Positions 14,405 to 55,535 of a stretch of DNA of 64,000 nucleotides are shown here, one piece after another; the stretch's first letter is position 1, and each line of letters begins with the position of its first letter. The DNA comes from an uncultured Candidatus Saccharibacteria bacterium (lineage in GTDB: Bacteria; Patescibacteriota; Minisyncoccia; Phycocordibacterales; JAACPR01). Position numbers and translations under genes: made by a program. A model generated the notes under the pieces. It was given only the letters and a program-made list of their open reading frames with translations, ran no database searches and was not told the origin of the DNA. Location: the NCBI GenBank assembly GCA_964402215.1, contig CAYOAT010000001.1, positions 134,703 through 198,702 of the forward strand. Direction: 5' to 3'.

Positions 14405-14415
14405 GTTATTTTTTA

Positions 14416-14940
14416 CTAATCGGCCTCATTTGCAGAACCACCACCCGGCGGAGTAGGCGAAACATTCCCCCCTATTGGGCCTGCTGATGGAATGAATAGG
14501 CGCATTGAAGTAATTGAACTGTTAATTTGGTTCAAAATTAACCAGGATATTAGAGCAAGGATAAGACCAGCAATGGCTGATTGAATTTTAGTTAGACCTT
14601 CCTTTTTTTCGAAAACCGCGTCCGTTGTCATATATTGTATAGAACCTAGAACAATATATAGAATAGCAAGTACTAGTGCTATAACAATCATCCACTTGAA
14701 TACCTTTGCCAGAATTCCACCAGTTGAGTCGAAATCAGATTCAACAAAAAGACCATTGCCACTACCGGTATCAGTTAGTGGCACATAACTATCAAGAGCT
14801 TGTGCGGCTTGCTCATTCTGTGTCAAATTTTTAGTATCAGTATTCCCAAAATTAATAGTTATTAAAACCGAGATTAATATAACTAAAAAAGTTAGTGTGG
14901 CCGACACAAGCATTATTTTTTTATTAAGAATATTTATCAT
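14416..14940 (-). CDS. VirB2/TrbC-like pilin candidate
   Basis: 174 aa. Long N-terminal signal/TM, hydrophilic spacer, then two closely spaced hydrophobic helices (ILAKVFKWMIVIALVLAILYIVLG / IQSAIAGLILALISWLILNQI) and a Gly/Pro tail. This is the topology of T4SS pilins. Sits in the T4SS-like operon. Confidence 0.4.
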   Translation of the reverse strand: MINILNKKIMLVSATLTFLVILISVLITINFGNTDTKNLTQNEQAAQALDSYVPLTDTGSGNGLFVESDFDSTGGILAKVFKWMIVIALVLAILYIVLGSIQYMTTDAVFEKKEGLTKIQSAIAGLILALISWLILNQINSSITSMRLFIPSAGPIGGNVSPTPPGGGSANEAD

Positions 14941-14942
14941 AA

Positions 14943-16013
14943 TTAAAATCGTGAATCATTATTTTTATAATATTGTACCTCCGTTATTTTCGTAGCCTTT
15001 ATAAATGGGTTTGCAAGGTTATTAATGGTAACAGAAAAATATGCTGAACCGTTTGTATTTTCTTCGTTTGCAAAAACTATATAGTTTGCCGTATCTGATA
15101 TATTTAATTTTGTGATTCCTCTATACCACTCGTATCTCAAGTCCTTTAAAGCATTTTTATCAAAAAAGAACGGTGAGATATAAATTTTTATCTCGTCACT
15201 ATTCAACATAATTTTATCACTTAAATCTTTATTTGAAAAAATTCCAAGAGAAGGGCTATTCTCATAGAAAATAGGTAATGGTTTTATAAACCTAAAACTC
15301 TCGATTGTTTTATTGGTTATGCTCTCATTTACTACTTTAATTGAGACGGTAATCATTACTTCCGTGGTGTAATTTTCTGGTTTAAAATAGAGAATATTTT
15401 TTCCTGCTCCTGATGCCTGAATATTTGTTTCGCCGTTAATTCTCCATGTGAAAACTATATTATCGTCGTCAATTCTTTTTCTGTCATACCCGAGTAGGTT
15501 TGTGACGGCAACAAATTCGATCTGTGACCCTTTTGATGGGAGACGCTTGCCTTTATAAAATGGGAAAGTTGTTGTCTGTGCCTCGTAAAATATTGATAAT
15601 TCTGATGCCGATACAGTCTCAGTTGCAGTGTATTCCAAACCACGACTTTTTACCACAACTTTTACTTTTGTGTCCCCTCCGATATCACCTACTTTTGTAT
15701 TAATTTCTTTTAAGCCAAGTCCACTTGTAATCAATTTGTCATTAACATACCAAAATATTGTTGATTCATTAAGTGATAGAGATTGACTCTCAACAATAAC
15801 TGTCACTGGACTGTTAGGCGTAGGGTTTGATGGACTAAATAATAAATTAACAGATGGTTTTCTCATTTCAAGTGAAGAGGGTATCGAATCCCCGGAGTTT
15901 TCAACCGAGCTTGTATCAATATCAGTCCAAGTTGTTTGCGCCGACAGATTGAATATTGGTAAAAAACAAAAAATCAGTGAACTAAATAGTAATGTTAATA
16001 TAAAACGTTTCAT
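14943..16013 (-). CDS. Secreted beta-rich protein in the T4SS-like operon, unknown function
   Basis: Signal peptide MKRFILTLLFSSLIFCFLPIFNLSAQ, 356 aa. Confidence 0.5.
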   Translation of the reverse strand: MKRFILTLLFSSLIFCFLPIFNLSAQTTWTDIDTSSVENSGDSIPSSLEMRKPSVNLLFSPSNPTPNSPVTVIVESQSLSLNESTIFWYVNDKLITSGLGLKEINTKVGDIGGDTKVKVVVKSRGLEYTATETVSASELSIFYEAQTTTFPFYKGKRLPSKGSQIEFVAVTNLLGYDRKRIDDDNIVFTWRINGETNIQASGAGKNILYFKPENYTTEVMITVSIKVVNESITNKTIESFRFIKPLPIFYENSPSLGIFSNKDLSDKIMLNSDEIKIYISPFFFDKNALKDLRYEWYRGITKLNISDTANYIVFANEENTNGSAYFSVTINNLANPFIKATKITEVQYYKNNDSRF

Positions 16014-16072
16014 TAGTATAATTGTAACAAATCACCTACCTTTGTGAAATAGCTTATTAGTGTAATGGCAAA

Positions 16073-16471
16073 TTATACTTTCTTTGTGATAACCGCCTTC
16101 CCTATTTTTGCGACATCAGCCAAGTCGCCACTTGTGTCACCACTGTCTTCTTTCCATGTCTGTCTGATTGTCAGAATTACGCCAATAGTAGTTAGACAGA
16201 AATCAATGACAGGTATAGGTAGCAGTTCGCCAATACTACTAACCCAAAACTTTCCACCAGATTTTGGACTACTTAGTTTTATATTTGAAGCCATGAACCA
16301 AATAGAAAAACTGATAAGCGCAAAAATATCAGGAATATATGCTAATACAACTCCGACAAACGGTAATAAATCAAACAAAAACTCCATTAGATCAAAGAAA
16401 ATGGCCAACATCACCATGCTCGCGGCCGACATTTTCGAAATTCTTCTATATTTATCATTTTCTTGCGCCAT
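16073..16471 (-). CDS. Small polytopic membrane protein in the T4SS-like operon
   Basis: 132 aa, three hydrophobic segments. Co-directional and tightly spaced with virB4. Preferred over the overlapping + strand ORF 16065..16484. Confidence 0.4.
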   Translation of the reverse strand: MAQENDKYRRISKMSAASMVMLAIFFDLMEFLFDLLPFVGVVLAYIPDIFALISFSIWFMASNIKLSSPKSGGKFWVSSIGELLPIPVIDFCLTTIGVILTIRQTWKEDSGDTSGDLADVAKIGKAVITKKV

Positions 16472-16476
16472 CTTTT

Positions 16477-18360
16477 TTATTTAAACCCCTCCAAATCTTT
16501 TTGAATTTTTCTGACATTCGATTCTTGAGTAGAAACGTTTTGTGCAGAGTCGTGTAACATTTGTTTGTTTTTTCTAATATCCAAAACTTGCGCAGGGTTT
16601 GAAGTAATTAGTTGGTCTTCGGCATATGAACCAATAACTTTGATGGCTACGTGTTTTAACCCAGCAAAGAATATTCCCTCCCCGACATCTGATTCCAAGA
16701 GTAAATATTTTTCCTCGTCAGTTAAGTTGAAGGTTTTTTGGACAATATCAATTGATGATACAGATTGTTTCATCAACATTTGCATAGACGAGTTGCTGAT
16801 AATTGGAATTCCATACGGAGAATTCAAAAAGTCTTCAACGTCCTGGGTGATAGTTGAAAGACCTAGATAATATTTTCTTCCTCTTTTTGCCAAACTAAAC
16901 AAAAATGATGCAGTGTCTTCTGATTTCATCATCCACCAAGCCTCGTCGATAACAAGTAATCTTTTTCTGAGATCCTTTCTAATCGCGGTCCAAATATGGT
17001 GTGTGACCAAATACATCGCAATAGGTTTTAGCTCGTCCTCCATGTCTCGTAGAGAGAAAACAATAAAGTTTTTATTTATATCGACATTTGTTGGTTTGTT
17101 GATGAAACCTGACCAAGTTCCCTTTGTATATTTTGTCAGTTTTTGCGCTAAATTTTCCGCACCTTCCATACCACCCAGAACCAATTCAAAGTCAGTCATC
17201 ATTGGGGGTTCGATTTGTGAAAAATCAGATTCAGGCGTGATATCCTTTAAAGCATAAGTTTCTGAAATTGCACGGTCTATTATTGCATCTTCCTCTGGAG
17301 TCAAACCTCCGAACATTAATCTAAATAAACCAACAAGGTTTACAATGTTTGAACGTAAAACATCAGATGGTTGTTCATCTGGTCGTGGAGCCGGAATATC
17401 AAACGGATTAATGTGGTGATTTGAAGTTAAAGAAATATTAAAGAATCTACCGCCCGTTGCTTCGGCCATATATTCATATTCCCTTTCTGGGTCGATAACA
17501 ATAACTTCTACGCCAAACATTAGGGATCTTAGTATTTCAAGTTTTGTTGTATAAGATTTTCCTGCACCGGCCTTTGCAAATGTTACCGAATTATAATTTT
17601 CAAGTGAAAATCTGTCGAACAAAACGAGACCAGAATTGTGTCTGTTAATTCCATATAAAATACCCTTATCGGCGGTTAATTCGAATGAAATGAATGGAAA
17701 AATACTAGACAATGGCTCAGAATTTAATTTTGTATGTATACCAAGTAAATCTGTGGCAATTGGAATAATGCTCTTGAAACCCTCTTCCTGTTGAAAAACG
17801 GCCGGTTTTACATAAACTAATTTCGCTTCAAGAATTGATTTTATTTCAGATTCAACTTTATCAAGTTCGTCATCAGAACTACCATATATAGATAGATATA
17901 AACCAACGTCAAAAATCTTTTCTTGGGCTTGTTGTAGGTTGTCGCGCAATGTTTCAAGATCTCTAAATGCCGTGTCCAATTGTGGATCACGAACCAAGCC
18001 TTTCTCCATTCGCATATTAATTTGGCTTTCGACTTCCGCAACTTTTTTCTGGAACTGGCGCAAAATGACTGTGGTATCGATTGGGTGAACGAAAATTGAA
18101 ATATCAAAAACCTTGTCTAGGTTTATTATTGGAGAGAACCAATTGTCAGATAAAAATCTTGGATAAGAAATAACAAAAAAACTTCTAACAATTCTGTCAC
18201 CAAGGCTTAATTCACGAGGGGAAACTTTTAAAGCGGGAGGAGCAATAATATCCTTTAATTCCAAAACACCTGCCTCATAAATTTGCTGTGGTAAAAATGA
18301 AGTAATTTTTGGTGCTTCTGTTTTAGAACTTTTTCCTTTTATAAAATCTAATATTCCCAT
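16477..18360 (-). CDS. virB4: VirB4/TrbE/CagE-family T4SS ATPase (ATPase and middle domains)
   Basis: Walker A FAKAGAGKSYTTK. Walker B LLVIDEAWWMM. Conserved GLSTITQDVEDF C-terminal motifs. About 260 residues precede Walker A, i.e. the usual N-terminal domain is absent here and lies on the upstream ORF. Confidence 0.85.
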   Translation of the reverse strand: MGILDFIKGKSSKTEAPKITSFLPQQIYEAGVLELKDIIAPPALKVSPRELSLGDRIVRSFFVISYPRFLSDNWFSPIINLDKVFDISIFVHPIDTTVILRQFQKKVAEVESQINMRMEKGLVRDPQLDTAFRDLETLRDNLQQAQEKIFDVGLYLSIYGSSDDELDKVESEIKSILEAKLVYVKPAVFQQEEGFKSIIPIATDLLGIHTKLNSEPLSSIFPFISFELTADKGILYGINRHNSGLVLFDRFSLENYNSVTFAKAGAGKSYTTKLEILRSLMFGVEVIVIDPEREYEYMAEATGGRFFNISLTSNHHINPFDIPAPRPDEQPSDVLRSNIVNLVGLFRLMFGGLTPEEDAIIDRAISETYALKDITPESDFSQIEPPMMTDFELVLGGMEGAENLAQKLTKYTKGTWSGFINKPTNVDINKNFIVFSLRDMEDELKPIAMYLVTHHIWTAIRKDLRKRLLVIDEAWWMMKSEDTASFLFSLAKRGRKYYLGLSTITQDVEDFLNSPYGIPIISNSSMQMLMKQSVSSIDIVQKTFNLTDEEKYLLLESDVGEGIFFAGLKHVAIKVIGSYAEDQLITSNPAQVLDIRKNKQMLHDSAQNVSTQESNVRKIQKDLEGFK

Positions 18361-18365
18361 GATAA

Positions 18366-18986
18366 TTATTGTTTAGTTGGTGAATTAACTTCGCTTGGAT
18401 TGAATATTTTGTAATAAATTTCGATTATTTCTTCCGTTCCAAGGCGGGCGACGCGCACACCGCACCTACTAATTCCCTGTTTAACCACAGAAACTCTTTG
18501 CTCCAGCTGACTTCGACTTTCTTCAAAATCGTCAGCAACCTGTTGAACCTTTGTTTTTTTATTTCCGCCAAACATTTTGCTGCCTTTTGATAAGTTAAGT
18601 CCTGGCGGAGTATAAGGAATGACAATAAAAAAGTTTTTTGTCATTATATTTACACTTTCGGTAAAAGTTTTAATAAAGTTTATGTATTCTTTTGATTGAA
18701 TTCGAAGCAAATCATTTGTCTGCGATTTGGTTTTATCTTCCAACATCGCCAGATAGGGTCTAATATCAAGCTTTCTTGATTGTATAAAAATTTGAATTGT
18801 AAAATCTAATGAGTTAAGAAAATTTTGAAATTGAAAAATTATCGCTTCCTGTTCGTCCTGGGATTTTAAAGCAAAGTTAAGAGACGAGGTCATCATAATT
18901 GCGCGCATCGATCCATCTTTCAATATAGCAACGCCATCCCTGACCTCTTTTATTGGAACAAAATCTTGTGATGTTTTTGGTACCAT
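18366..18986 (-). CDS. Stand-alone VirB4 N-terminal (CagE_TrbE_VirB-like) domain protein
   Basis: 206 aa. ...VPIKEVRDGVAILKDGSMRAIMMTSSLNFALKSQDEQEAIIFQFQNFLNSL... aligns by eye with the VirB4 N-terminus (YLPYIGHLSDHIVLLEDGSIMSIARIDGVAFELEE...AFNTLFRNI). Stop is 5 nt upstream of the virB4 ATG in another frame. Confidence 0.5.
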   Translation of the reverse strand: MVPKTSQDFVPIKEVRDGVAILKDGSMRAIMMTSSLNFALKSQDEQEAIIFQFQNFLNSLDFTIQIFIQSRKLDIRPYLAMLEDKTKSQTNDLLRIQSKEYINFIKTFTESVNIMTKNFFIVIPYTPPGLNLSKGSKMFGGNKKTKVQQVADDFEESRSQLEQRVSVVKQGISRCGVRVARLGTEEIIEIYYKIFNPSEVNSPTKQ

Positions 18987-19028
18987 TTGAAATTATTATA
19001 CACTATATTATCTACACCCCTAAACTTG

Positions 19029-19436
19029 CTATTCGATTTTCTCTTTAATGTCCAAACTCCAAGATAAGTCTTTCAATTTGCTGTCAGAGAGCTTGGGCAA
19101 AAACATTCCTGGATCAATAGCGGCTTCTGCGTTACCTTTTGCTTCTATTTTCTTTGGTATTTTTTTCCAAATATAAATTTTACTGCCTGTAAAATATTTT
19201 ACAGAATTCTCAAATGTTTGGACAAAAGGTTGCCATCCATCAAATTTAAAAAAAGCAAACATAAGGAAAAGAGCAACAACAGGAATGCCTAGAATAATAG
19301 CAATTATTTTTGGAAAGATGCTCCAAATAATAAACCCTATTCCAGCAGCACCACCGACGTACAAAAATTGTTTTGCCGTTAATGGGCCGAATATTTTGTC
19401 TTCAACCCCGATAAATTGTGGAACTTGATATTTCAT
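19029..19436 (-). CDS. VirB3/PrgI-like small two-TM membrane protein
   Basis: 135 aa. Two adjacent TM helices (FLYVGGAAGIGFIIWSIF / IIAIILGIPVVALFLMFAFF) near the N-terminus. Immediately upstream of the VirB4 ORFs, as in Gram-positive-type T4SS. Confidence 0.4.
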   Translation of the reverse strand: MKYQVPQFIGVEDKIFGPLTAKQFLYVGGAAGIGFIIWSIFPKIIAIILGIPVVALFLMFAFFKFDGWQPFVQTFENSVKYFTGSKIYIWKKIPKKIEAKGNAEAAIDPGMFLPKLSDSKLKDLSWSLDIKEKIE

Positions 19437-19443
19437 TTATAAC

Positions 19444-20061
19444 TTATTCTAACACTTCCCTGTAAGGGTCGATAACTTTTGGTTTTACAACATAATTTTC
19501 CGTCTTTGATTCGACAACAGAAGTCAGTTTTTGTTCAGCGATTTTATTTTCTATGCTGGTTACTTCTGTTTTGGCTGGCGCTGTTTCAATATTTTTAACT
19601 AGTGTTGTCGTTGGTTCATCAGATAGTATTTCCAAATGGTCAGACATTTCTGCTGCAATGGATTCCTTTGTAGGTGTGGAGGTTTTTATGTTGTCTTCTG
19701 GCAAGATAGAAACAGATTGCTTCTTCTCTTGTAGCTCTACAAGTTTTTGCTTTATGTCTCTAAAAACTTCATCTTCTACTGAATTAATTATGCTGTTTAA
19801 TTTTTCATCCTCAAGTTTAATTTCTTGTTTAAGGACATCGGCATATTTTATTGGACTAATAATGCCAAGCATTACAAGAAAAGTATTTTTTTCAAGAGTA
19901 TTAGCATCTCCTATTACAAGATTATTTTTTTTAGATATCGCGCGTATTTTTTGTTCCCAATGAGAATTAACAATCGCTTCTTTTATTACTTGTGGTAGCG
20001 AATTAAATATTTCTACTATTGGATCGTTTTCAGTGCTTTGTTGGTTGTTTGGTTCTTGCAT
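19444..20061 (-). CDS. Hydrophilic coiled-coil protein in the T4SS-like operon
   Basis: Start trimmed to M17 (MQEPNN...) to remove a 38-nt overlap with the upstream gene. No TM and no recognisable domain. Confidence 0.4.
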   Translation of the reverse strand: MQEPNNQQSTENDPIVEIFNSLPQVIKEAIVNSHWEQKIRAISKKNNLVIGDANTLEKNTFLVMLGIISPIKYADVLKQEIKLEDEKLNSIINSVEDEVFRDIKQKLVELQEKKQSVSILPEDNIKTSTPTKESIAAEMSDHLEILSDEPTTTLVKNIETAPAKTEVTSIENKIAEQKLTSVVESKTENYVVKPKVIDPYREVLE

Positions 20062-20071
20062 AATAATTTGC

Positions 20072-22210
20072 TTATGATTTTGGAGTAGCTGGAGGAGTTG
20101 GACCGGCACCCTTGCTCATTTCGGCTGTCAGGGTTTTTATCAATTGCGCCATAGCTTTTTCATCATTGCTCTTGTACATACTCTTTACTCGATCTTCAAT
20201 TGCTTTATTTTGTCCCTGCGTTAGTGGAATTATTTCATTAGCAAATTTTCTAATACCCAGATTTGGATCGCTACCCAATATTTTTTTGGCTTCCCTTTTC
20301 TCAATTGAATTCTTTAGAGATTCCAAACTTGCGGAAGTTGCGGTAAGCTCAGACTCATCTTCATTATTGTTTTCAATTTGTGCCGTAATTGCTTCGACGT
20401 CTCTCAAGGCTAAGTCGGCTTGATTTCTATAGTTGTTTGCTCCAATTATGTCACCAGCAGCTTCAAGTTTTACAGCCTCGGCAGAGAAATTCTTTGCCTC
20501 ATCCTTAACTACGTTAAGCTGGGTTTGTAAATCTTTTTGTCTTTGTCTAATACCCTCAAGTTGTGTCTTGGTTCGTGCAAGTTCACTTTCGGCTTCCTTA
20601 TATTCATTATCATCTCTAGCACTTGCAAGTGCGCGTCTCTGAATATCTGCATCTTGACCTCTTCCCGTCAAACCAAGTCTTTCATTTCTGTCAGCGATTT
20701 CTTTTGCAGCATCCTTAGTTTCCTTTTCAAATGTTGAACTCGAACCTTTGCCGGCATCAAGACCTGAAAGTTTTAATAATTCAGCAGCACCCCTAGTGTT
20801 TCTGATATCAAAAGTACTTTTTGCAGCTTTATTTCCAACATCGGATATACCTCGGCCAACAAAGTTCGCAGCAAAATTATTTCCGACACGACGTTTGAAT
20901 CTCGCCCCAAAACTATCGCCCTCTGCAGTTTTCCAATTTTGTAGAGTTGAGCTTGTTTTAGCTAATCTGTTTCCAACTCCACCAATAAGTTTTCTACCAG
21001 CAAATGCGCCCATACCCATTGCCATTCCCATACCTGCTTCTGCACCATGTGCACCTGATTGCTTTCCAACTATAACTGCTCCTATTAAAAATGAAGTAAC
21101 AATTATAAAGTTCAAGATTATACTAAAGGCACCACCATTACCCCCATGTTCGTTAGCTTCAGCAATGTTCCCCCACGCCGATACTCCGTTTGCGACATTT
21201 GTTGCTGAATCAATAAAACCTGGACCCGCAAGCTGATATGAAATATATAAAAAGAGAAACATGGCTGGAAGTGAAATTAAATGGCTTAATAGGCTTGTTG
21301 ACCATTTTTCAGTGTACTTACTTAATACGGGCAATATCCACCCACCGAACATTATAGGTGAAGCAATTAATAGAAAAATTAAACTTATAAATCTCGTAAA
21401 TACAACTATTGCAACTGCAAAAAAAACAATTGCAGCTATTACCAAAAATATAGCGACGAGGATATAAATACCAGCCTTTTTATAGTTGTCGGTTTCTCTT
21501 GCTAGGGCTGGATCACTATCCATATCATAGAACAGTGTAAAACCAAGTCTTTGCATAAAACAATTTGATAAACCACCGTCAGTAAAATAACGCTCATCTT
21601 GAGGTGTTAGGGCTTCAGGATTATCACCGACAGTGACTGTTGGTGCGTTGCAGCCATTCATATTGTCATAGAAACTAAGCGCTAGGACATTTGAAACGTC
21701 GATAGCCACCGATGTAAAAAAGAAGCTAAAATTGATTAGTAGGGCACTCATTATAATTTGGCCCAATCTTTTTTTGCTATTCTCTGACCAACCACCAATT
21801 ATAGTCGTAATTGATAGGTACAAAAGGCCGAAAATAAAGAATAAATTTAATACATCACGGAAAATACTCCAAGCATTTGCAATGGCGTTGGTATCTTTAA
21901 TAATTCTGGCCATTTGTGTTACTCCAATATAAATAACAAAGTTTAGAAAAGTTCCTGAAAGCCATATGATCCATGCACATAGTCTAAAAAATAGTTTAGC
22001 AATCCCTAATATCAAATATCCAAATGCAGTTCTGAGTGCCTCGCCAATGCCCAAAATGGAGCTATCCTCGGTTTCTGCTGCTTTGTTTTCTGCCGGCGCG
22101 GCTTGCGCAATATGAGTTGAAATTATAAAAATAAACGCAATGGCAATTATCAACAAAATAAAAGCCAGTAACGTATTTTTTTTATATGAATTTAATTTCA
22201 ATTTAAACAT
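20072..22210 (-). CDS. VirB6/TrbL-like polytopic inner-membrane protein with Gly-rich segment and about 300-aa C-terminal coiled-coil extension
   Basis: Signal peptide, at least 6 TM segments, GMGMAMGMGAFAG Gly-zipper, long charged coiled-coil tail. Architecture of VirB6/TrbL (or Gram-positive TcpH/PrgH-like) channel proteins. Confidence 0.5.
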   Translation of the reverse strand: MFKLKLNSYKKNTLLAFILLIIAIAFIFIISTHIAQAAPAENKAAETEDSSILGIGEALRTAFGYLILGIAKLFFRLCAWIIWLSGTFLNFVIYIGVTQMARIIKDTNAIANAWSIFRDVLNLFFIFGLLYLSITTIIGGWSENSKKRLGQIIMSALLINFSFFFTSVAIDVSNVLALSFYDNMNGCNAPTVTVGDNPEALTPQDERYFTDGGLSNCFMQRLGFTLFYDMDSDPALARETDNYKKAGIYILVAIFLVIAAIVFFAVAIVVFTRFISLIFLLIASPIMFGGWILPVLSKYTEKWSTSLLSHLISLPAMFLFLYISYQLAGPGFIDSATNVANGVSAWGNIAEANEHGGNGGAFSIILNFIIVTSFLIGAVIVGKQSGAHGAEAGMGMAMGMGAFAGRKLIGGVGNRLAKTSSTLQNWKTAEGDSFGARFKRRVGNNFAANFVGRGISDVGNKAAKSTFDIRNTRGAAELLKLSGLDAGKGSSSTFEKETKDAAKEIADRNERLGLTGRGQDADIQRRALASARDDNEYKEAESELARTKTQLEGIRQRQKDLQTQLNVVKDEAKNFSAEAVKLEAAGDIIGANNYRNQADLALRDVEAITAQIENNNEDESELTATSASLESLKNSIEKREAKKILGSDPNLGIRKFANEIIPLTQGQNKAIEDRVKSMYKSNDEKAMAQLIKTLTAEMSKGAGPTPPATPKS

Positions 22211-22212
22211 GT

Positions 22213-23232
22213 TTATATCGCTATGTCACCCAGACCCGCGGCACCGAAAGATTCTTTAACAACCTCATCTATAATGGCAAATATTAATTCATTAAACTCG
22301 TCTGCAAGCGCCAGTCTGTCATAAGGAATTCCTGTAATATTTGATATCTTTTGTTGAATCATTTGGCCCGGGGTTATTACATTTCCGTCTTTGTCTCTTA
22401 TGTTCATAAAACCACTACCCCAGGTTAAATTCATCGCCCAGGTGTTTTTTTCGGCCTCAATACGGGCTTGAGCTCTCTGAGACAATTTATCAGCGTCGTC
22501 ATAAGGGTCATTTGCCTGTGTTAATGTAAACCAACTACGCCATCCACCTTTAGCAAAATCGCCACTGGTAAATTGTTGTACTACACCTCCGCCAACAGCA
22601 CCATCTTCACCCAAAATCGTTGATAGTCTGCAGTCTTTTGGTTTCTCCTTTGATTGCCAATTAATTAGTAGTGAAGCAGTTATTCTAATTTTAAAATTTG
22701 AACACAAATCAACATCATCGATTAATTCATCCAGTGCTGTTCCAAAGTCCCTATCAGAGATATTTCTGAAAAATGCCCCAGGATTTTCCAAAAACATTGG
22801 CTTACCATTTGCCCCGTTTTTTACCCATTGGGTCATGCTTACTAGTATGTCTCTTAACATGGATTCAACCAGACATGTTGCGATAGAATCCCACGGAGGT
22901 AGGCTGGTTAATCCATTGCCAGTTTCCTTTGCTCGAATCGATGCATCCTTTACTGGAACTTCAAGAGAAAGAATCCCGCCTGTAAATGATGAAATCCATT
23001 CACTTAGCTTGTCACTAAGCCATCTCATTGCTTCCATCAAAAAAAGGTCAGCGTATGCCTTTACAATACATTTAGCAACTGTCGCCCCTATTGCCAATCC
23101 TGCATCGAGTAGAAGATTATCATTTCTATTATCATTACGGTCTGTCGCATAGTAATCGCGCACATCAGAGGTCGAGTCTAAAGCATGTGCCAAATGAGGG
23201 TTGTATAAAAAAAAGTTGCCAAATATTAACAA
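22213..23232 (-). CDS. Soluble 339-aa protein in the T4SS-like operon, unknown function
   Basis: No TM or signal peptide. Abuts the VirB6-like gene with its stop adjacent to that gene's start. Confidence 0.45.
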   Translation of the reverse strand: MLIFGNFFLYNPHLAHALDSTSDVRDYYATDRNDNRNDNLLLDAGLAIGATVAKCIVKAYADLFLMEAMRWLSDKLSEWISSFTGGILSLEVPVKDASIRAKETGNGLTSLPPWDSIATCLVESMLRDILVSMTQWVKNGANGKPMFLENPGAFFRNISDRDFGTALDELIDDVDLCSNFKIRITASLLINWQSKEKPKDCRLSTILGEDGAVGGGVVQQFTSGDFAKGGWRSWFTLTQANDPYDDADKLSQRAQARIEAEKNTWAMNLTWGSGFMNIRDKDGNVITPGQMIQQKISNITGIPYDRLALADEFNELIFAIIDEVVKESFGAAGLGDIAI

Positions 23233-23294
23233 AAAAAATTATTAAAAAATAAATTGATTTAAATATTTTTTTGCACAGTATTTCGTACATGTAA

Positions 23295-24239
23295 TTAGTA
23301 TCCATCTGACATAATAAATGTTTCTCCATTAAATATTATACCATTGTTTTTTAGGTATTGGAGAATATTGGACCAGTCATCCTGTATAATTTCAGCACTT
23401 TTGTAGTACAAAGATAAACCAAGAAGTTGTAAAAGAGGATCGCTTTCAGCATCTAACCATATAAGTGATATCGCAGTATTATAATAATTGTTAGCTAACC
23501 GAGTTTGTATTTCGGCCATTTTGGCTGGAGTTTTCGTTTCGATGAGGGCTATAGATATTTTTTCAATAGCCTCAAACTGTGCGTTTATGTCGCTAACACC
23601 AGACTGTTCGTAAGACGATCTTGCATCACTTTCTATTTTGATTATTCTATTTGCATATTGAAGTATGCCGTTTCTATCAAGCAAATCATCAAAAGTAAAC
23701 AATGTTGATTGTTCGTAACGATTTTTTATTTTTTTGCTGTTTATGGCCTCAGATGAAACTTTTAATATAAAATCTTTTTTTTGCTGCACAGATAAATCAG
23801 AGCCGGTTTCATTTTTTAAAGAAAAATACTCTTGCATAAAAGCATCAGAAAATTCTTTTGTCAGTCCTGTTGATTGAAGCGGACTATTTTCGATTTTATT
23901 AAGTATTCTTTGTTCTATACTAATATTTTCATCGTCTGGTCCGGCCTTGGCTGGGTTTCGATTTAATTTTACTTCCTCCCCATCATTTGTTTTATCGCCA
24001 TCAGTATCGGCAAGGTTGGGGTCGCTTCCCCATAATGATTCTTCCCAATCTAATAAACCATCAGCATCAGTGTCTTCTTGTAATTTTGTGTCTAAATCAA
24101 TCGAAAGAGAAGTAACGGGTTTGGCGCCAGTTTTTTCAGAAAAACCAGACTCCATGTTTCTTGATATTAAAACAATCAACACAACAATTATGGTTGTAAC
24201 CAGAAACACAACCGAGATTTTTTTACTTGGTATCCTCAT
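23295..24239 (-). CDS. Membrane-anchored protein with Asp-rich calcium-binding-like repeats; first gene of the T4SS-like operon
   Basis: N-terminal TM (VVFLVTTIIVVLIVLIS). Repeats DTDADGLLDWEE / DTDGDKTNDGEE resemble DxDxDG Ca-binding (thrombospondin type-3-like) loops. Confidence 0.5.
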   Translation of the reverse strand: MRIPSKKISVVFLVTTIIVVLIVLISRNMESGFSEKTGAKPVTSLSIDLDTKLQEDTDADGLLDWEESLWGSDPNLADTDGDKTNDGEEVKLNRNPAKAGPDDENISIEQRILNKIENSPLQSTGLTKEFSDAFMQEYFSLKNETGSDLSVQQKKDFILKVSSEAINSKKIKNRYEQSTLFTFDDLLDRNGILQYANRIIKIESDARSSYEQSGVSDINAQFEAIEKISIALIETKTPAKMAEIQTRLANNYYNTAISLIWLDAESDPLLQLLGLSLYYKSAEIIQDDWSNILQYLKNNGIIFNGETFIMSDGY

Positions 24240-35501: not shown

Positions 35502-36452
35502 ATGTCGAATAAGTCTGAAATTGATACTTTGCGTCAAGAATTTCTCGAATATATAGAAATTGAGAGAGGACGAAGCGTTAAAACCGTTGAAAATTACGAT
35601 CATTATTTAAGCCGTTTTTTTGCTGAACAAGGTATTAAAGAAGTTAAAGATATTACTGAGCGGGCAGTTCGTGAATTTCGTCTTTGGTTGAATCGTCAAA
35701 ATACAACGAAAAATATCGGTGGAAGGCTAACCTCCGGTACAATGAAGAAAAGAACTCAAAATTACTATTTAATCGCCCTTAGATCTTTTCTTAAATTTCT
35801 TTTAAAGAGAAATTATAAAGTAATCGCTCCAGATCAAATTGAATTAGCAAAAATTCCAGAGCGTTCTATCGATTTAATTACAAATGACGAATTAAGGAGG
35901 ATTATGGAGGGACCGAAAGGTCAAGACATAAAAGATTTGCGTGACAAAGCGATTTTAGAATTATTTTTTTCGACAGGACTCCGTGTTTCTGAATTATGTT
36001 CATTGAATCGTGAAGTTGATTTGAGTCGAGGAGAATTTGCGATACGAGGAAAAGGAGACAAAATTCGTGTTGTTTTTATTTCTGATTCAGCAAAAAAATC
36101 ATTGGATAAATATTTAGATAAAAGAGATGATATGGACGAGGCAATGTTTGTTCAGCTTGCAGGGAAAGGCGGAAATGATTTATTAAAAAAGAAAGAATCA
36201 ATAAGACTTACTCCGCGATCAATTGAAAGGATAGTCAGATTTTATGCTGTTAAAGCTGGTATTTCAAAGAAAGTTACGCCTCACATTATTCGCCACTCAT
36301 TTGCCACTGATTTACTGTCTAATGGAGCTGATTTGCGTTCTGTTCAGGCGTTACTTGGTCACGCAAATATCACTACAACCCAGGTTTATACTCACGTTAC
36401 AGATAGACATTTAAAAGAAATTCACAATAAATTTCATAATAAAGGATTGTAA
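35502..36452 (+). CDS. xerC: Tyrosine recombinase XerC/XerD family
   Basis: N-terminal SAM-like core-binding domain. C-terminal catalytic R..HxxR..Y (HIIRHSFATDLL...LLGHANITTTQVYTHV). Confidence 0.85.
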   Translation: MSNKSEIDTLRQEFLEYIEIERGRSVKTVENYDHYLSRFFAEQGIKEVKDITERAVREFRLWLNRQNTTKNIGGRLTSGTMKKRTQNYYLIALRSFLKFLLKRNYKVIAPDQIELAKIPERSIDLITNDELRRIMEGPKGQDIKDLRDKAILELFFSTGLRVSELCSLNREVDLSRGEFAIRGKGDKIRVVFISDSAKKSLDKYLDKRDDMDEAMFVQLAGKGGNDLLKKKESIRLTPRSIERIVRFYAVKAGISKKVTPHIIRHSFATDLLSNGADLRSVQALLGHANITTTQVYTHVTDRHLKEIHNKFHNKGL

Positions 36453-38203: not shown

Positions 38204-39673
38204 CTATTTCACGTGTCTTTTTTGTCTAATTTTTGTAATTTCAGCAGTTTCGGCTTCGTTTTTTACTTCTTTGGCCTTTAGGGCAATGTTTCTCAAGTCT
38301 TTTTCTGACAGATCTAACAGTTTTTCAATTTGTTTCACAAGAAACGCCTCTGTATTTTTTGTTGGATCTTCAATTACCTCTTCTAATAGAGCGTTTAATA
38401 TATAACCAATTCGTGGTCCCGGTTCCATGTGAAACCTTTTCATTATTTCGTTACCATCAATTTTTAGCATTGATACTGAAATAGGGTCTCTTATTACCTC
38501 TTCAATCATTGATTGATATTTGCGCAGCCTGTAAGGCTCTTCCTTTGGTCTTCCTGTGCCTATTCTGTCGCAGATGCGTAGATTCATCAATTCCCAGATA
38601 TTATCCTTGGAAACCTTGCTTATAAGCCTCCTGACGGCAGATGGTGTGATTTGTTCTGTGTCCGAGAAGAACATGTGGTATCTAACTAGTTTTTCAACCT
38701 TATCAATAACCTCTTTTGGAAAAGCTAGTTTTTTTAATGTTTCGCGCGCTATTTTTGCGCCGCCTACTTCGTGGTTATAAAAAGTAGTTTTATTTTTTTC
38801 CTCACGTTTTGTTTCGGGTTTTGCCGAATCGTGGAATAGTGCTGCCAATCTAACCTCAAGTGAAAAGTTTTTATCTGCAGCATGCTGAACTGCACGTAAT
38901 GAATGTTCCCAGACGTCATATAAATGAGCTTCTTTATTTTGCTCAACACCAACCATTTCTTCAAGTATTGGTAAAATATGGCTTAAAATATTAAGTCTTT
39001 GGGCAAGACCTAAACCCATGCTTGGGTTTCTTGATAAAATTATTTTCTTGAACTCCTCCCCTATTCTTTCATTCGAAATATGTTTAATCAGAACAGAATT
39101 TTTTAAAATCGATTCTGCAGTTTCTTTTTCAATTACAAAATCAAGTTCCGACGCAAATCTGATTGTTCGCAACATACGAAGTGCGTCTTCGCTAAAACGT
39201 TTATCGGGATCACCCACTGCCCTAACTAATTTTGCCTTCAAATCCTCCTGTCCTTTATAGTTATCTACAATCTGTCCTTTATTAAGATCCACAGCCATTG
39301 CGTTAATTGTAAAGTCCCTTCTCCCTAGGTCATCTTCGATTTTATGGCTAAAGACAACGCTATTTGGATGTCTTTTATCTGAATACTCAGATTCAAGTCT
39401 GTATGGAGTTACTTCAATTACCTTTAGTGTCGGATCTTCTGACTCAGTTTTTACACCTACAGTGCCAAAGGTATTCTCATAAAATGAATCTGGAAAGATT
39501 TTTTGAATTTCTTCCGGGACAGCGTTTGTTGCAAAATCCCAGTCTTTTGGTTTATTACCCAAAATAATATCGCGGACACTACCACCGACGATGTATGCTT
39601 CAAAACCCGCCTCCTTTATTTTTTTTGAGACGTCAATAACTTCATTTGGAATGAGATCGATGTTTATTTTCAC
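38204..39673 (-). CDS. cca: CCA-adding tRNA nucleotidyltransferase with C-terminal HD domain
   Basis: Pol-beta-like GGSVRD..DWDF head domain, RxxR..ERxxxExxK body, HD-domain motifs (HD...H...D). Confidence 0.85.
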   Translation of the reverse strand: MKINIDLIPNEVIDVSKKIKEAGFEAYIVGGSVRDIILGNKPKDWDFATNAVPEEIQKIFPDSFYENTFGTVGVKTESEDPTLKVIEVTPYRLESEYSDKRHPNSVVFSHKIEDDLGRRDFTINAMAVDLNKGQIVDNYKGQEDLKAKLVRAVGDPDKRFSEDALRMLRTIRFASELDFVIEKETAESILKNSVLIKHISNERIGEEFKKIILSRNPSMGLGLAQRLNILSHILPILEEMVGVEQNKEAHLYDVWEHSLRAVQHAADKNFSLEVRLAALFHDSAKPETKREEKNKTTFYNHEVGGAKIARETLKKLAFPKEVIDKVEKLVRYHMFFSDTEQITPSAVRRLISKVSKDNIWELMNLRICDRIGTGRPKEEPYRLRKYQSMIEEVIRDPISVSMLKIDGNEIMKRFHMEPGPRIGYILNALLEEVIEDPTKNTEAFLVKQIEKLLDLSEKDLRNIALKAKEVKNEAETAEITKIRQKRHVK

Positions 39674-39730
39674 TAAGTTATTCTAGCCTAATTTTGATTT
39701 TTGGCCAATTTATCGTATGATTTCATTACT

Positions 39731-39802
39731 GCGCCCGTGGTGAAATGGATATCACAACGGTCTTCGGAACCGTCGTTGTGGGTTCGAATCCTGCCGGGCG
39801 CA
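39731..39802 (+). tRNA. tRNA-Arg (anticodon TCG)
   Basis: Hand-folded cloverleaf: acceptor gcgcccg/cgggcgc, D-arm gtga/tcac, anticodon arm acggt-cttcgga-accgt, T-arm with ttcgaat loop, 72 nt, no encoded CCA. Confidence 0.75.
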
Positions 39803-39848
39803 CAAGAAGATGATGTTTTCCGAAAATTATTATTAATAATAAAAACAA

Positions 39849-40079
39849 ATGCTTGAAAAATTTAGGAGTTTAGTTAGAAAAAATAAGAATTTAAACCTTA
39901 TTTTAAGCGGTATTTCGTTGGTTTATATTTGGAGAGGAGTTTGGAGTTTAACTGATATGTTCACATACGGTGAATATTCAAGTCCAGAATTTTGGTCATA
40001 TTTAATTCCAATGATTATTTCTTTCGCTTATATTTATTTTAATGATTATAAGTTTGATGAGTTGGTTCATAAGGATTAA
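39849..40079 (+). CDS. Small two-TM membrane protein between two tRNA genes (hypothetical)
   Basis: 76 aa, two hydrophobic segments. Only ORF in the tRNA-Arg / tRNA-Gly spacer. Confidence 0.3.
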   Translation: MLEKFRSLVRKNKNLNLILSGISLVYIWRGVWSLTDMFTYGEYSSPEFWSYLIPMIISFAYIYFNDYKFDELVHKD

Positions 40080-40133
40080 TTTAAAAAGGATCTATTGAAT
40101 TTTCTTTAAAAAAGATTATACTTTAGATCTTCT

Positions 40134-40204
40134 GCGAGTATGGTTTAGTGGTAGAATGCGTCCTTGCCAAGGACGAGACGGGAGTTCGATTCTCCCTACT
40201 CGCA
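40134..40204 (+). tRNA. tRNA-Gly (anticodon GCC)
   Basis: Acceptor gcgagta/tactcgc, anticodon arm cgtcc-ttgccaa-ggacg, T-arm gggag-ttcgatt-ctccc, 71 nt. Confidence 0.8.
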
Positions 40205-40389
40205 CAAAATATTTTCAATATCAGATAAGGACAAGTTGTTTTTGTAAATAATTGTCTGTTAAAAAACGCTCAAAATCTGGGTTATTTGGTGTTATGTGGA
40301 TAACTATGGGGATATGTGTATAAAAGACATGTCTTTTTGACTTATATAGTATTGACAACGGCTCTAAATATGATTATTTTATGTATGTT

Positions 40390-40417
40390 TCACGTAAAAC
40401 GTTTCACGTGAAACACT
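40390..40417. repeat. Tandem pair of 14-bp palindromes (gtttcacgtaaaac + gtttcacgtgaaac) upstream of yraN
   Basis: Consensus GTTTCACGTGAAAC is a perfect 14-bp palindrome. This 28-mer is 25/28 identical to the in-ORF copy at 40652-40679. Confidence 0.6.
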
Positions 40418-40518
40418 ATTTATCTATTCTTCGGACTGATTTTATTTTCTTGTGTTAACATACCAAGATACCAAGTAAAATAAGGATAAAAGGGGATTTT
40501 GGCGAGCAAATTGCCTGT

Positions 40519-40869
40519 ATGTTTCTCGTGAAACATGGTTTTTGTGTTAAGAAAAGAAATTATTTAAGAAGGGTTGGAGAAATAGATGTAATTGCGCAAA
40601 AAAATGAAAAGCTATACTTTATTGAGGTAAAAACGTTTTTTATTGAATCGGTTTCATGTGAAACGTTTCGCGTGAAACAAAATATATATTTACCAGAAGA
40701 AAATGTTTGTGAAAGTAAGATTAGAAAAATGATTGTAACTGCAGAATTGTTTTTGTTGGAAAATAATTTAAAGGACAGGGAAGTAGAGTTTGGCGTAATT
40801 TCAGTTGTTATTGGTAAAAGTAAAAAAATATTGAGAATTAGATATATTGGAAATGTAAACATTAATTAA
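40519..40869 (+). CDS. yraN: YraN/UPF0102 family predicted PD-(D/E)xK endonuclease; N-terminus apparently truncated or non-ATG start
   Basis: GEIDVIAQKNEKLYFIEVKT matches the UPF0102 core (GEIDLIA....L.FVEVKTR). The in-frame upstream sequence ..KGDFGEQIAC continues the family's N-terminal similarity back to a stop at 40456 with no ATG/GTG/TTG. Confidence 0.6.
   Translation: MFLVKHGFCVKKRNYLRRVGEIDVIAQKNEKLYFIEVKTFFIESVSCETFRVKQNIYLPEENVCESKIRKMIVTAELFLLENNLKDREVEFGVISVVIGKSKKILRIRYIGNVNIN
40521..40534. repeat. Single 14-bp palindrome copy (gtttctcgtgaaac) overlapping the yraN ATG
   Basis: 13/14 match to the consensus. The preceding tgtATG context is shared with the upstream copy (tgtatgtttcacgt vs tgtatgtttctcgt). 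Confidence 0.55.
40652..40679. repeat. Second tandem pair of the 14-bp palindrome (gtttcatgtgaaac + gtttcgcgtgaaac) inside the yraN coding sequence
   Basis: Encodes ...VSCETFRVKQN... of the predicted protein. 262 bp downstream of the first 28-mer. Confidence 0.6.
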
Positions 40870-40874
40870 TTTAA

Positions 40875-40905
40875 TTAAAAAACACCACGTACTTTTACGT
40901 GGTGT
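40875..40905. terminator. Intrinsic terminator, mainly for the minus-strand gene 40920..41429
   Basis: 9-bp perfect stem caccacgta/tacgtggtg, loop cttt, followed on the minus strand by a T-run. Confidence 0.55.
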
Positions 40906-40919
40906 CGGAATCTGCGGCT

Positions 40920-41429
40920 CTAGATAAGAGTCATTCCGAAAAACTTGTGAAAACCAAGAATTGTGCTGTCACAACCTTTTAGAATTTTCTCCTCCCCAGA
41001 GAAAAGAAGAAAGTTGTTACATGCGGGATTGTTGGTGTTTAAATACACAAGACTGACACCGTCAATGTCTCCCGCATAGACAATTGGTCCGCGACCGCAA
41101 TTAAAGTTTTCATCTTTATATGCTTCAGCCAATGCTTTTTTCAAAAATGGGATTACGGCTTCTGGATAACATCCGCCGTAACTCATTCCCCATACGGCAT
41201 TGCCCTTGAAAAAAATGGTTGTGTTACCCATACTCCAGTCAGAATTTGGGAAAACCCGCCATTCATCGACCACTTTAAAGAAACCCTCTTCCCATGTGTG
41301 GATGCGCCTGCCGTCAGGAAATTTCTCTTTTTTGACACCGCTGCCATCGCCTGCATAGCCCGCAAGAAGTGCCTTAAAAAAGACTTTGAGAGCCTCAGCT
41401 AGAATCATCGACCTCGACCATGAATCCAT
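40920..41429 (-). CDS. 169-aa protein of unknown function, GC-elevated (about 45%), with Shine-Dalgarno; likely foreign cassette
   Basis: Upstream on the minus strand: TTGACA (41502-41507), 17-nt spacer, weak -10 TAATGT, then accAAGGAAaatt-ATG. No recognisable domain (..GNTTIFFKGNAVWGMSYGG..GPIVYAGDIDGVSLVYLNTNNPACNNF..). Confidence 0.5.
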   Translation of the reverse strand: MDSWSRSMILAEALKVFFKALLAGYAGDGSGVKKEKFPDGRRIHTWEEGFFKVVDEWRVFPNSDWSMGNTTIFFKGNAVWGMSYGGCYPEAVIPFLKKALAEAYKDENFNCGRGPIVYAGDIDGVSLVYLNTNNPACNNFLLFSGEEKILKGCDSTILGFHKFFGMTLI

Positions 41430-41529
41430 AATTTTCCTTGGTTTGTTTTGTTTTCTATATCAAAAATCGCTCTGCCGGAACATTACAATTAAAAAAAATC
41501 AATGTCAATTTTTACCTAAACAATTTTTG

Positions 41530-41602
41530 TCGGAGCGCAGGGATTCGAACCCTGAGTCATCTGCTCCCAAAGCAGACATGTTAGCCGTTACACCACGCTC
41601 CG
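41530..41602 (-). tRNA. tRNA-Pro (anticodon TGG)
   Basis: The reverse complement folds as acceptor cggagcg/cgctccg, anticodon arm tctgc-tttggga-gcaga, T-arm caggg-ttcgaat-ccctg, 73 nt. Confidence 0.8.
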
Positions 41603-41665
41603 TTTATGCTTCAAAATAGTACACGAAAAATGGAGATATATCAAATATAATGATAAATTATTATT

Positions 41666-41971
41666 ATGTTTGGAAAATTATTTCAAAAGAAAAAAGAAGA
41701 TTTCATTTGTGAAAAATGTGGTTTTGTTAATGTTGGGGATGGATATACTAATCATTGCCAAAAATGTCTTTGGTCAAAACATGTTGATATTAATCCAGGT
41801 GATCGTGCAGAAAAGTGTCAGGGGCTAATGGAACCAATTAATCTGGTAAATAATAGCGATGTTTTTTTTATCACGCATAAATGTACGAAATGTTCTAAGG
41901 AAAAAAGAAACAAAGCTCAGAAAGGAGACGACTTCAACCAATTAGTAAAAATTAGTTGTAAAGGAAAATAA
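41666..41971 (+). CDS. RNHCP-domain zinc-ribbon protein
   Basis: 101 aa with CEKCG..(N)..TNHCQKC..(N)..CTKCSK cysteine pairs. The TNHC.KC signature fits the RNHCP domain. Confidence 0.55.
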   Translation: MFGKLFQKKKEDFICEKCGFVNVGDGYTNHCQKCLWSKHVDINPGDRAEKCQGLMEPINLVNNSDVFFITHKCTKCSKEKRNKAQKGDDFNQLVKISCKGK

Positions 41972-54755: not shown

Positions 54756-55535
54756 ATGGACAAAAAAAATCTCTTAAAAAATAGAAAACTTGTTGTTGCA
54801 AATTGGAAAATGAATCCTAATAACCTTGCTGATGCCAGAAAAATTTTTTCTGACCTAAAGAAAAAAAATCTTAAAACACCAAAGACAATAAACGTAATTT
54901 GCCCCCCAAGTATTTTTCTTGGTGATTTGGCCAGCGATTATACCGGAACAAAGTATGTTTTTGGCGCCCAGGACGTTTCATATAAAAAAGAGTCAGAATC
55001 AACAGGGGAAATTGGAACAGAAATTTTGAAATCAATCGGAGCAAGCTTTGTTATAGTCGGACATTCTGAAAGAAGAGCTATCGGTGAAACGAATGAAATA
55101 GTGGCAATGAAAATGAAAGTGGTTGTCGATAGCGGATTAATACCAATTTTGTGTGTGGGCGAGAGTGAAAGAGATTTTTCTGGACAATATTTACGATTGA
55201 TAGAAGAACAAATTCATGTTTCACTTTCCAAACTTTCAAAAAACGATATTAAAAAAATAATTATCGCTTATGAACCTGTTTGGTCTATCGGTGCTGGACA
55301 CAAAGCAATGATTTCTAATGAAGTTCATCAGATGAGTTTATTTATTAAAAAAATATTAACTCGAATTTACAATAGAAAGGACGCCATGAATATGCCGATT
55401 TTGTATGGCGGTTCTGTTGATGTTACTAATTGCAAGGAAATCGTTGAATCTGGGGAAGTCGATGGTTTACTGATTGGACGAGCGAGTCTAAATCAATTTG
55501 TTTTTCTAGATATTCTAAAGGAATTAAATAAATAG
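54756..55535 (+). CDS. tpiA: Triosephosphate isomerase
   Basis: VANWKMN, VGHSERR, AYEPVWSIGAG, YGGSV motifs. Confidence 0.9.
   Translation: MDKKNLLKNRKLVVANWKMNPNNLADARKIFSDLKKKNLKTPKTINVICPPSIFLGDLASDYTGTKYVFGAQDVSYKKESESTGEIGTEILKSIGASFVIVGHSERRAIGETNEIVAMKMKVVVDSGLIPILCVGESERDFSGQYLRLIEEQIHVSLSKLSKNDIKKIIIAYEPVWSIGAGHKAMISNEVHQMSLFIKKILTRIYNRKDAMNMPILYGGSVDVTNCKEIVESGEVDGLLIGRASLNQFVFLDILKELNK

Follow-up and report, generated by a model that had tools for sequence, protein, structure and literature searches.

What is a tight cluster of palindromes doing in and around a small gene that has no proper start codon? The question is raised by a stretch of 64,000 nucleotides (here called the window) from contig CAYOAT010000001.1 of an uncultured Candidatus Saccharibacteria bacterium, in which 292 bp (40387-40678) hold five copies of the 14-mer GTTTCACGTGAAAC, each with zero or one mismatch, at the 5' end of a yraN gene and inside it. 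A preliminary description of this DNA had counted five copies within 300 bp, which is borne out, and had offered an operator triad for a dimeric regulator, the remains of a rearrangement, or RNA hairpins as explanations. The identity of the motif, which is parS, was not recognised there. The five palindromes are most probably chromosomal parS sites, that is, predicted loading sites for ParB, and form an origin-proximal, centromere-like cluster of a chromosome of the Patescibacteria, also known as the Candidate Phyla Radiation (CPR). The sites and the yraN gene are arranged as follows.

38332-38345 and 38422-38435, no strand assigned: two weak parS-like sites of two mismatches each, within the neighbouring gene cca
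40387-40414, no strand assigned: upstream abutting pair, GTTTCACGTAAAAC followed by GTTTCACGTGAAAC, which with its flanks makes up the 30-mer TGTTTCACGTAAAACGTTTCACGTGAAACA
40519-40869, plus strand: YraN/UPF0102 open reading frame (ORF), 116 amino acids (aa) from the ATG, matching Pfam PF02021 with 56.7 bits against a cut-off of 23.6
40520-40535, no strand assigned: parS-like 16-mer TGTTTCTCGTGAAACA over the sole yraN ATG, in codons for M-F-L-V-K-H
40651-40678, no strand assigned: internal abutting pair, GTTTCATGTGAAAC followed by GTTTCGCGTGAAAC, right after the catalytic EVKT

When one mismatch is allowed, the 14-mers start at 40387, 40401 (the perfect copy), 40521, 40651 and 40665. The two pairs abut strictly, lie 264 bp apart and are identical at 25 of 28 positions; two tandem 28-mers of that identity had been described before, at coordinates (40390-40417 and 40652-40679, 262 bp apart) which are corrected in the list above. 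The likeness between the two copies ends at the borders of the parS units, with none in the flanks. The copy at the start codon had been taken for a half-unit and is really a complete 14-mer with one mismatch (40521-40534), the first base of which is the G of the sole ATG of the YraN ORF. The duplication of the ATG context has also been seen again, 'tgtatgtttc' being present at 40382 and at 40516. The internal pair encodes V-S-C-E-T and F-R-V-K-Q, in two different frames. Across the whole window, seven matches to GTTTCACGTGAAAC occur with up to two mismatches where 0.21 are expected, and none of 100 shuffles reaches seven. Nor is the motif a common dispersed repeat, an outcome that the preliminary description had named as fatal to its reading: over approximately 78 kb of contig (the window and its flanks), parS-like sites with at most two mismatches are confined to 38.3-40.7 kb. 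All sites, as well as a TAA stop upstream of yraN that is discussed below, are identical in a second assembly (99.7% identity, with 11 mismatches and 2 gaps over 6.3 kb).

The parS consensus has been given as TGTTNCACGTGAAACA, and the parS of M. smegmatis as exactly GTTTCACGTGAAAC, in a review of the field (PMC7022226). When set against this pan-bacterial sequence, the best match in the window reaches 14 of 14 core positions and 15 of 16 positions of the longer form; one of the five 14-mers is perfect and four carry one mismatch, while as 16-mers they carry one to three. The upstream pair with its flanks, TGTTTCACGTAAAACGTTTCACGTGAAACA, reads as a 16-mer parS in which the 14-bp core has been duplicated. 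This canonical identity, together with the low copy number, the clustering, the proximity to an origin and the selection on DNA described below, leads to the reading of the locus as a parS cluster.

Abutting pairs of this kind are rare. A scan for GTTNCRYGTRAAAC occurring twice in succession, with one genome per species and approximately 185,000 species, found such pairs in 18 species genomes at that stringency. Outside the CPR, the pairs lie in the parA/parB interval (L012), near parB (L015), at mnmE/gidA (L021), at ybeY/gidA (L018) and beside gyrA (L022), which are classic parS contexts, and no YraN-family gene occurs within the fetched loci. Only two CPR genomes are among the matches (L011 and L014), and in both the pair is located at the 5' end of yraN. 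The first of these, from the Paceibacterota, is syntenic with the window, with a small ORF, a tRNA-Gly, a DnaA-box block and an identical 28-mer, followed by a parS-like site abutting a proper ATG and by a yraN containing ATGTTTCTCGTGAAACA. In L014, from the Saccharibacteria, a tRNA-Gly and three DnaA boxes are followed by a parS-like site and then by the pair, which overlaps the yraN ATG. A further arrangement was noticed in a Saprospiraceae metagenome-assembled genome (MAG) of the Bacteroidota (L008, 1023-1092), where two abutting GTTGCGTGTGAAAC pairs 42 bp apart amount to four variant parS-like units in 70 bp.

Conservation has been followed at two distances. In the close relatives (L002, L003 and L004/L005, with YraN identities of 50-62%), the upstream 28-mer and the start-site 16-mer are invariant amid scrambled intergenic DNA. 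The upstream pair is also invariant in L011, and the start-site 16-mer is unchanged in five aligned relatives and in L011; of the internal pair, the first unit is kept in L002-L005 and the second is degenerate. The distant set consists of 80 metagenomic yraN loci of 31-47% identity, in which 180 parS-like sites are found in the 66 kb around yraN (2.7 per kb), compared with 94 in the other 614 kb (0.15 per kb), and at least one site lies near yraN in 71 of the 80. The sites keep four fixed registers relative to the catalytic EVK codon. They occur upstream of the gene or at its start, within the FL(V/M)KH motif and, singly or as two, immediately past EVK, where they encode V-S-R-E-T; the offsets of the window sites from the EVK codon (-237, -223, -103, +27 and +41) agree with these registers. 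The upstream register holds a perfect 14-mer in 43 of 76 loci, as against 1 of 59 in a control region, and the class following EVK, at up to two mismatches, is present in 69 of 80 loci with a bias towards CGN and TCN codons. Most remaining distant sites occur 0.5-1 kb upstream of yraN, where 34 of the 40 host ORFs are cca homologues. Spacing within pairs is usually 15-16, 24-26 or 36 bp in the distant relatives, strictly abutting pairs being peculiar to the lineage of the window, L011 and L014.

At these registers, FLVKH is written TTTCTCGTGAAACA in 11 of 16 loci, with background frequencies of 0.12 for CTC and 0.22 for GTG; the codon that precedes it ends in G in 60 of 62 loci, and where this preceding codon encodes lysine it is AAG 26 times and AAA twice, against a background AAA frequency of 0.8. 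The arginine of VSRET is CGN in all 17 loci and CGT in 13 of them (background AGR 0.42, CGT 0.16), and the serine is TCN in 17 of 17. Codon choice is thus skewed to spell parS, and selection therefore acts on the DNA itself and not on the peptide alone.

The second part of the puzzle is the missing start of yraN. The encoded protein has retained the catalytic GEID...EVK motifs of its family (GEIDVIA and IEVKT in the translation), and residues 6-49 are matched by PDB 3FOV. Family similarity upstream of the sole ATG had been noted beforehand and is upheld by the Pfam UPF0102 match, which starts 6 residues upstream of this codon, and by the homologues P0002 and P0003, which align through an upstream M..(C)KIPSKIRIKGDFGE. 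The DNA concerned is the following.

40450-40518, plus strand: remnant of the ancestral yraN 5' end, reading TTG TGT TAA (stop at 40456-40458) and then 20 in-frame codons, HTKIPSKIRIKGDFGEQIAC

As previously stated, no alternative start is available back to the stop, the 20 in-frame codons between the TAA and the ATG at 40519 containing no ATG, GTG or TTG, and the ORF lacks a canonical start ahead of its N-terminal G-x-x-G-E helix. The lesion differs among lineages, with a TAA in the window, a 2-nt deletion that puts the upstream ATG out of frame in L003 and a TAG in L004/L005. Since these three lesions are different and all lie upstream of the repeats, there have been at least three independent losses of the start, and the decay is a separate, recurrent one unrelated to the repeats. 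Relatives with an intact ATG and no repeats had been envisaged in the preliminary description; intact ATG starts do exist, in L002 and L011, with the repeats present. The public gene call (P0001, 116 aa) starts at the ATG at 40519, and translation begins either there or at a non-canonical ATA, the only in-frame non-canonical candidates upstream being ATA and ATT codons. Initiation at 40519 would drop the conserved G-x-x-G-E helix, and this ATG lies within a predicted stem of -7.4 kcal/mol. The AGGGG could be brought nearer to the ATG by a small hairpin at 40501-40515, which is not clearly conserved in L004/L005. Approximately 40 nt before the ATG (AAATAYCAAGTAAAATAAGGRTAAAAGGGGATTTTGG; 40474-40510, AAATACCAAGTAAAATAAGGATAAAAGGGGATTTTGG) are nearly invariant in relatives with YraN identities of just 50-62% and more conserved than the body of the gene, with almost no synonymous change, which suggests a role at the nucleic-acid level, for example as a leader, a ribosome-binding site or a protein-binding site.

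The parS sites and yraN are part of a larger module, the other members of which are listed here.

38204-39673, minus strand: cca, CCA-adding enzyme, the divergent neighbour of yraN, with Pfam PolyA_pol, HD and related domains
40134-40205, plus strand: tRNA-Gly(GCC), upstream of the DnaA-box/parS/yraN module
40295-40323, minus strand: DnaA-box-like 9-mers (in top-strand letters), TGTGGATAA at 40295-40303 (perfect), TGGGGATAT at 40307-40315 (2 mismatches) and TGTGTATAA at 40315-40323 (1 mismatch)
40322-40337, no strand assigned: perfect palindrome of 16 bp, AAAAGACATGTCTTTT, adjoining the DnaA boxes; as RNA it has only weak stability (-4.1 kcal/mol, z = -1.5)
40352-40380, plus strand: sigma-70-like promoter match TTGACA-17-TATTTT, 10 of 12 positions by consensus match only, kept in L002 and L003

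The perfect DnaA box at 40295-40303 had already been pointed out and is confirmed, and the first parS begins 64 bp downstream of the trio to which it belongs. The three-box layout also occurs in the Saccharibacteria locus L014, and 45 of 67 loci have a perfect TGTGGATAA on the same strand ahead of the parS/yraN unit, compared with 1 of 46 in a control region. In relatives, two degenerate boxes and an AAAGRACA...TGTCTYTT inverted repeat typically come after the perfect box; the loop of this repeat has zero length in the window and a variable length of 10-40 nt in relatives (L028-L059). The DnaA box is a conserved partner of the parS sites. Many relatives have, in addition, a second degenerate copy of box and repeat ('atatgttgaaaaataaggatat...taaaagacat') ahead of the first parS. 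The transcription start predicted from the promoter match coincides with the first unit of the upstream parS pair. The tRNA-Gly(GCC) lies upstream in L011, in L014 and in 23 of 57 metagenomic loci as well, cca adjoins yraN in 51 of 80 loci, and the parS-like sites in the cca genes of relatives are stronger than the two weak ones of the window. Downstream of yraN, a bidirectional terminator-like hairpin at 40881-40906 is followed by a DUF5680-like gene (40920-41429, below the Pfam cut-off) and by a gene for an RNHCP-domain zinc-ribbon protein (41666-41971), both genes being syntenic in L002, L003, L004 and L011.

How far this module lies from the origin of replication depends on the genome considered. 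In the window, the likely origin is found elsewhere.

9100-10203, minus strand: dnaN
10204-10429, no strand assigned: dnaA-dnaN intergenic region, likely oriC, with five DnaA boxes of 0-1 mismatch, approximately 30 kb from the parS cluster
10430-11779, minus strand: dnaA, with yidC also nearby

Raw GC skew in the window merely tracks gene orientation, and the polarity switch was placed with an orientation-corrected, per-gene GC-skew model. The best position is at 4-10 kb (t = 3.6, at 6 kb), beside dnaA and dnaN, which sets the parS cluster at about 30 kb from the likely origin; an origin at 40 kb in this genome finds no support in the corrected skew (t = 1.3 against 3.6). Of the 25 relatives for which long flanks are available, 20 have a higher GC skew on the top strand to the right than to the left of the cca|yraN junction (p = 0.001), and the shift holds within plus-strand genes (0.090 right, 0.038 left, p = 1e-4) and within minus-strand genes (-0.050 right, -0.091 left, p = 0.02). 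No dnaA is present in those relatives within the fetched flanks of yraN (up to 10 kb). The cca|yraN junction thus has the polarity of an origin in them, and in many relatives the module may be located at the origin itself, which is not the case in the window. A XerC/XerD-like tyrosine recombinase is encoded at 35502-36452, approximately 4 kb from the parS module, and 15 of the 80 related loci have a homologue about 5 kb upstream of yraN. The dif/Xer systems normally act at the terminus, and such a position would be unexpected if the junction were origin-proximal. Right after yidC, a minus-strand block (13127-24239) encodes a pilin-like protein of type IV secretion systems, a TraG-type P-loop ATPase and several large proteins without a Pfam match. 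The block may represent a type IV secretion cluster, or a conjugation-like one, next to the origin region.

That the DnaA-box/parS module is itself the replication origin or part of it, an origin-centromere composite rather than a centromere remote from oriC, is the most serious of the rival explanations and still a rather improbable one. It would account for the three DnaA-box-like 9-mers standing 64 bp ahead of the first parS, for the retention of the perfect box in relatives at a frequency far above that of the control region, and for their origin-type skew switch, which persists on both gene strands at a junction with no dnaA in the fetched flanks. In the window, however, the corrected switch lies beside dnaN and dnaA and the dnaA-dnaN spacer is the richer in boxes (five, against three in 29 bp at the module), while the loci contain 1-2 good boxes on average and no unwinding element has been identified at the module. 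A wider proposal, put forward tentatively, is that cca and yraN hard-wire the centromere of Patescibacteria around a conserved DnaA-box element that marks the origin or, in this genome, once marked it. The junction would then be a compact origin-centromere unit, ParB would be distant or highly divergent, and expression of the resolvase-like YraN would be coupled to occupancy by ParB and DnaA.

The remaining explanations fare less well. The palindromes could be operators of another dimeric regulator of yraN, conceivably YraN itself, with a coincidental or co-opted likeness to parS; the upstream pair at the predicted +1 of TTGACA-17-TATTTT, the site over the ATG, the tight tie to yraN in 71 of 80 loci and the lack of a ParB gene nearby would all suit such an arrangement. 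It is nonetheless unlikely, given the 14/14 and 15/16 matches to pan-bacterial parS. Pairs of the same build stand beside parAB and gidA in phyla for which the fetched locus shows no YraN-family gene, sites within cca and deep in the yraN coding region are improbable places for operators, and the module has no conserved regulator gene tied to it. Of the operator triad first suggested, the sites for a dimeric DNA-binding protein stand, and a ParB loading cluster fits them far better than a gene-specific looping operator. An action mainly through hairpins or cruciforms, be it as stems in the 5' untranslated region, as RNA sequestering the start codon or as cruciform substrates, has little to recommend it. 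RNA stems are indeed predicted, as had been supposed, at -11.4 kcal/mol for the upstream pair, -14.8 for the internal pair and -7.4 for the start site with its AUG in the stem (z-scores of -2.9 to -4.5), but any palindrome has hairpin potential automatically by its dyad symmetry, and what is conserved is the exact parS sequence and not pairing with covariation. Sites are also found on both transcribed strands (cca and yraN) and upstream of promoters, and a search of 39600-41700 against Rfam returned only tRNAs at threshold, with no other match at a permissive E-value. Least credible of all is an origin of the copies as rearrangement debris, or as a mobile repeat of the repetitive extragenic palindromic (REP) or miniature inverted-repeat transposable element (MITE) kind, that displaced the native yraN start. 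The near-identity of the 28-mers, the duplicated 'tgtATGtttc' context and the absence of a canonical start speak for it. The motif is not dispersed, however, and distant relatives carry sites at homologous positions, in the same registers in 71 of 80 loci; L002 and L011 combine the repeats with an intact ATG, the three independent start lesions lie upstream of the repeats and not at them, and the copies are alike only within parS units. A REP/MITE family has been rejected for want of dispersed copies in the approximately 78 kb of contig and in view of the fixed registers in the genes of relatives, and duplication of the 28-mers as a segment has been rejected as there is no likeness past the parS units.

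Several observations weigh against the parS identification all the same. All but one of the five sites deviate from the core at one position, and the nearest relatives have not kept the second internal unit. The ParB model alone does not predict so tight a linkage to yraN, and sites abutting at 14 bp raise the question of whether two dimers can be accommodated simultaneously. Moreover, no ParB or ParA was detected in the window (Pfam, with ORFs of at least 150 aa, and unannotated ORFs at E <= 0.1) or among the Pfam tags of the contig flanks, 9-10 kb past each end, and no ParB was found with phmmer and a two-sequence ParB profile in approximately 0.84 Mb of related CPR DNA made up of yraN neighbourhoods only. 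A literature search for ParABS (parS/ParB) in CPR/Patescibacteria, Saccharibacteria or Parcubacteria, and for parS together with yraN, likewise gave nothing relevant. It is concluded that parB is not adjacent to its sites; its absence from the genome does not follow. Clustering of neighbouring genes has revealed no consistent DNA-binding partner, the recurrent families being cca, ExoIII, a XerC-like recombinase, a ZIP-type transporter, an M23 peptidase and a TrmB-like protein (in 11 loci).

Comparison with known systems shows which features of the cluster are familiar and which are not. Bacillus subtilis has 10 parS sites and Corynebacterium glutamicum has 10 clustered ones (PMC7022226). Chromosomal ParABS systems share with the window the 14/16-bp palindrome, low copy number, clustering and origin proximity, and differ in that no parAB is found nearby here, that yraN and cca, and not parB or gidAB or their surroundings, contain the sites, and that two pairs are built of units abutting at 14 bp. 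The abutting pairs found in other phyla have the same build, two 14-mers head to tail with no spacer, whereas a placement at yraN is restricted among them to the two CPR genomes. One parS site of B. subtilis lies within the spo0J coding sequence. In both cases a single stretch of DNA serves as codons and as a ParB site, but here a phylum-level group as a whole has three to four sites in constant registers of a single small gene, with measurable selection at the codon level. Clusters of DnaA boxes are known both outside and inside oriC, as in the B. subtilis clusters and in E. coli datA, and resemble the present trio in that strong and weak boxes stand close together between genes; the boxes described here are instead coupled to parS in constant order, a small inverted repeat is conserved along with them, and any function is putative. 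In Pseudomonas aeruginosa, ParB is reported to repress promoters next to parS3/parS4 (PMC5521831). The two cases are alike in that parS adjoins or overlaps a promoter or 5' end, and a comparable regulation of yraN would be presumptive. The YraN/UPF0102 family itself (PD-(D/E)xK-like) shares the Pfam match and the GEID...EVK motifs with the window copy, which lacks a canonical start. The CPR proteins have an extra segment after EVK that hosts parS, with 102 residues aligning to the 80-position profile, and this segment is absent in P0010 and P0012.

ParB is a dimeric, CTP-dependent DNA clamp, and its partition complex marks the origin region for segregation and SMC loading. By analogy with ParABS biology, ParB dimers would nucleate on each 16-bp dyad of the cluster, and the dimers bound to CTP (cytidine triphosphate) would close into clamps and slide onto flanking DNA, giving rise to a partition complex that would mark the origin region for the same two processes. 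With five sites in 292 bp, including two abutting pairs, the locus would constitute a dense and redundant loading zone with a higher loading rate. On this reading the sites are ancient and are held in position by the yraN leader, the FLVKH motif and the lineage-specific segment after EVK, where codons are constrained for the peptide and the site alike. ParB occupancy probably damps yraN expression, an effect suggested by the position of the upstream pair at the predicted +1 and of another site over the ATG, and DnaA probably binds the adjacent boxes beside the centromere.

Some observations made along the way concern the assemblies and genes distant from the module. In the triosephosphate isomerase gene region, the Joint Genome Institute (JGI) assembly of the same organism (L026, 6080-6146) and the window (54875-54894) differ by an indel of approximately 47 nt, with a product of 202 aa in the former and an ORF of 259 aa in the latter. 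The same two assemblies are separated by 11 substitutions and 2 gaps in the 6.3 kb around yraN. A European Nucleotide Archive contig (L027) is 100% identical to the window. The differences from the JGI assembly, together with the identical contig, indicate at least two strain or assembly variants. A YebC/TACO1-family ORF at 3621-4151 is 176 aa long, its second Pfam domain matching positions 1-57 of 160, and the gene may be truncated or frameshifted. Just past the end of the window, after rpsL-rpsG, the EF-G region (L026, 15921-18055) has been called as two genes, one of 385 aa without a Pfam tag and one of 317 aa with EFG_III, EFG_IV and EFG_C, and fusA may be split or frameshifted in that assembly.

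What lies at this locus is thus a parS cluster, an element of canonical type in a phylum that is unstudied, and the puzzle of the palindromes is largely explained. What the locus adds is the conserved architecture, embedded in coding sequence and coupled to a DnaA box, with a possible coincidence with the origin in relatives. The CPR/Patescibacteria are almost wholly uncultured and their chromosome biology is essentially unknown. The tRNA-Gly/DnaA box/parS/yraN-cca module can be read from sequence alone and provides a landmark by which MAGs can be oriented, closed and compared, and, in the few Saccharibacteria that can be cultivated, it offers defined pieces of DNA on which binding of ParB and DnaA can be tried. 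It also constitutes a clean case of dual coding, in which codon choice is visibly constrained to keep a DNA site predicted to be bound by a protein. If the junction is the origin in most such genomes, the links between segregation, replication initiation and yraN would become directly testable.

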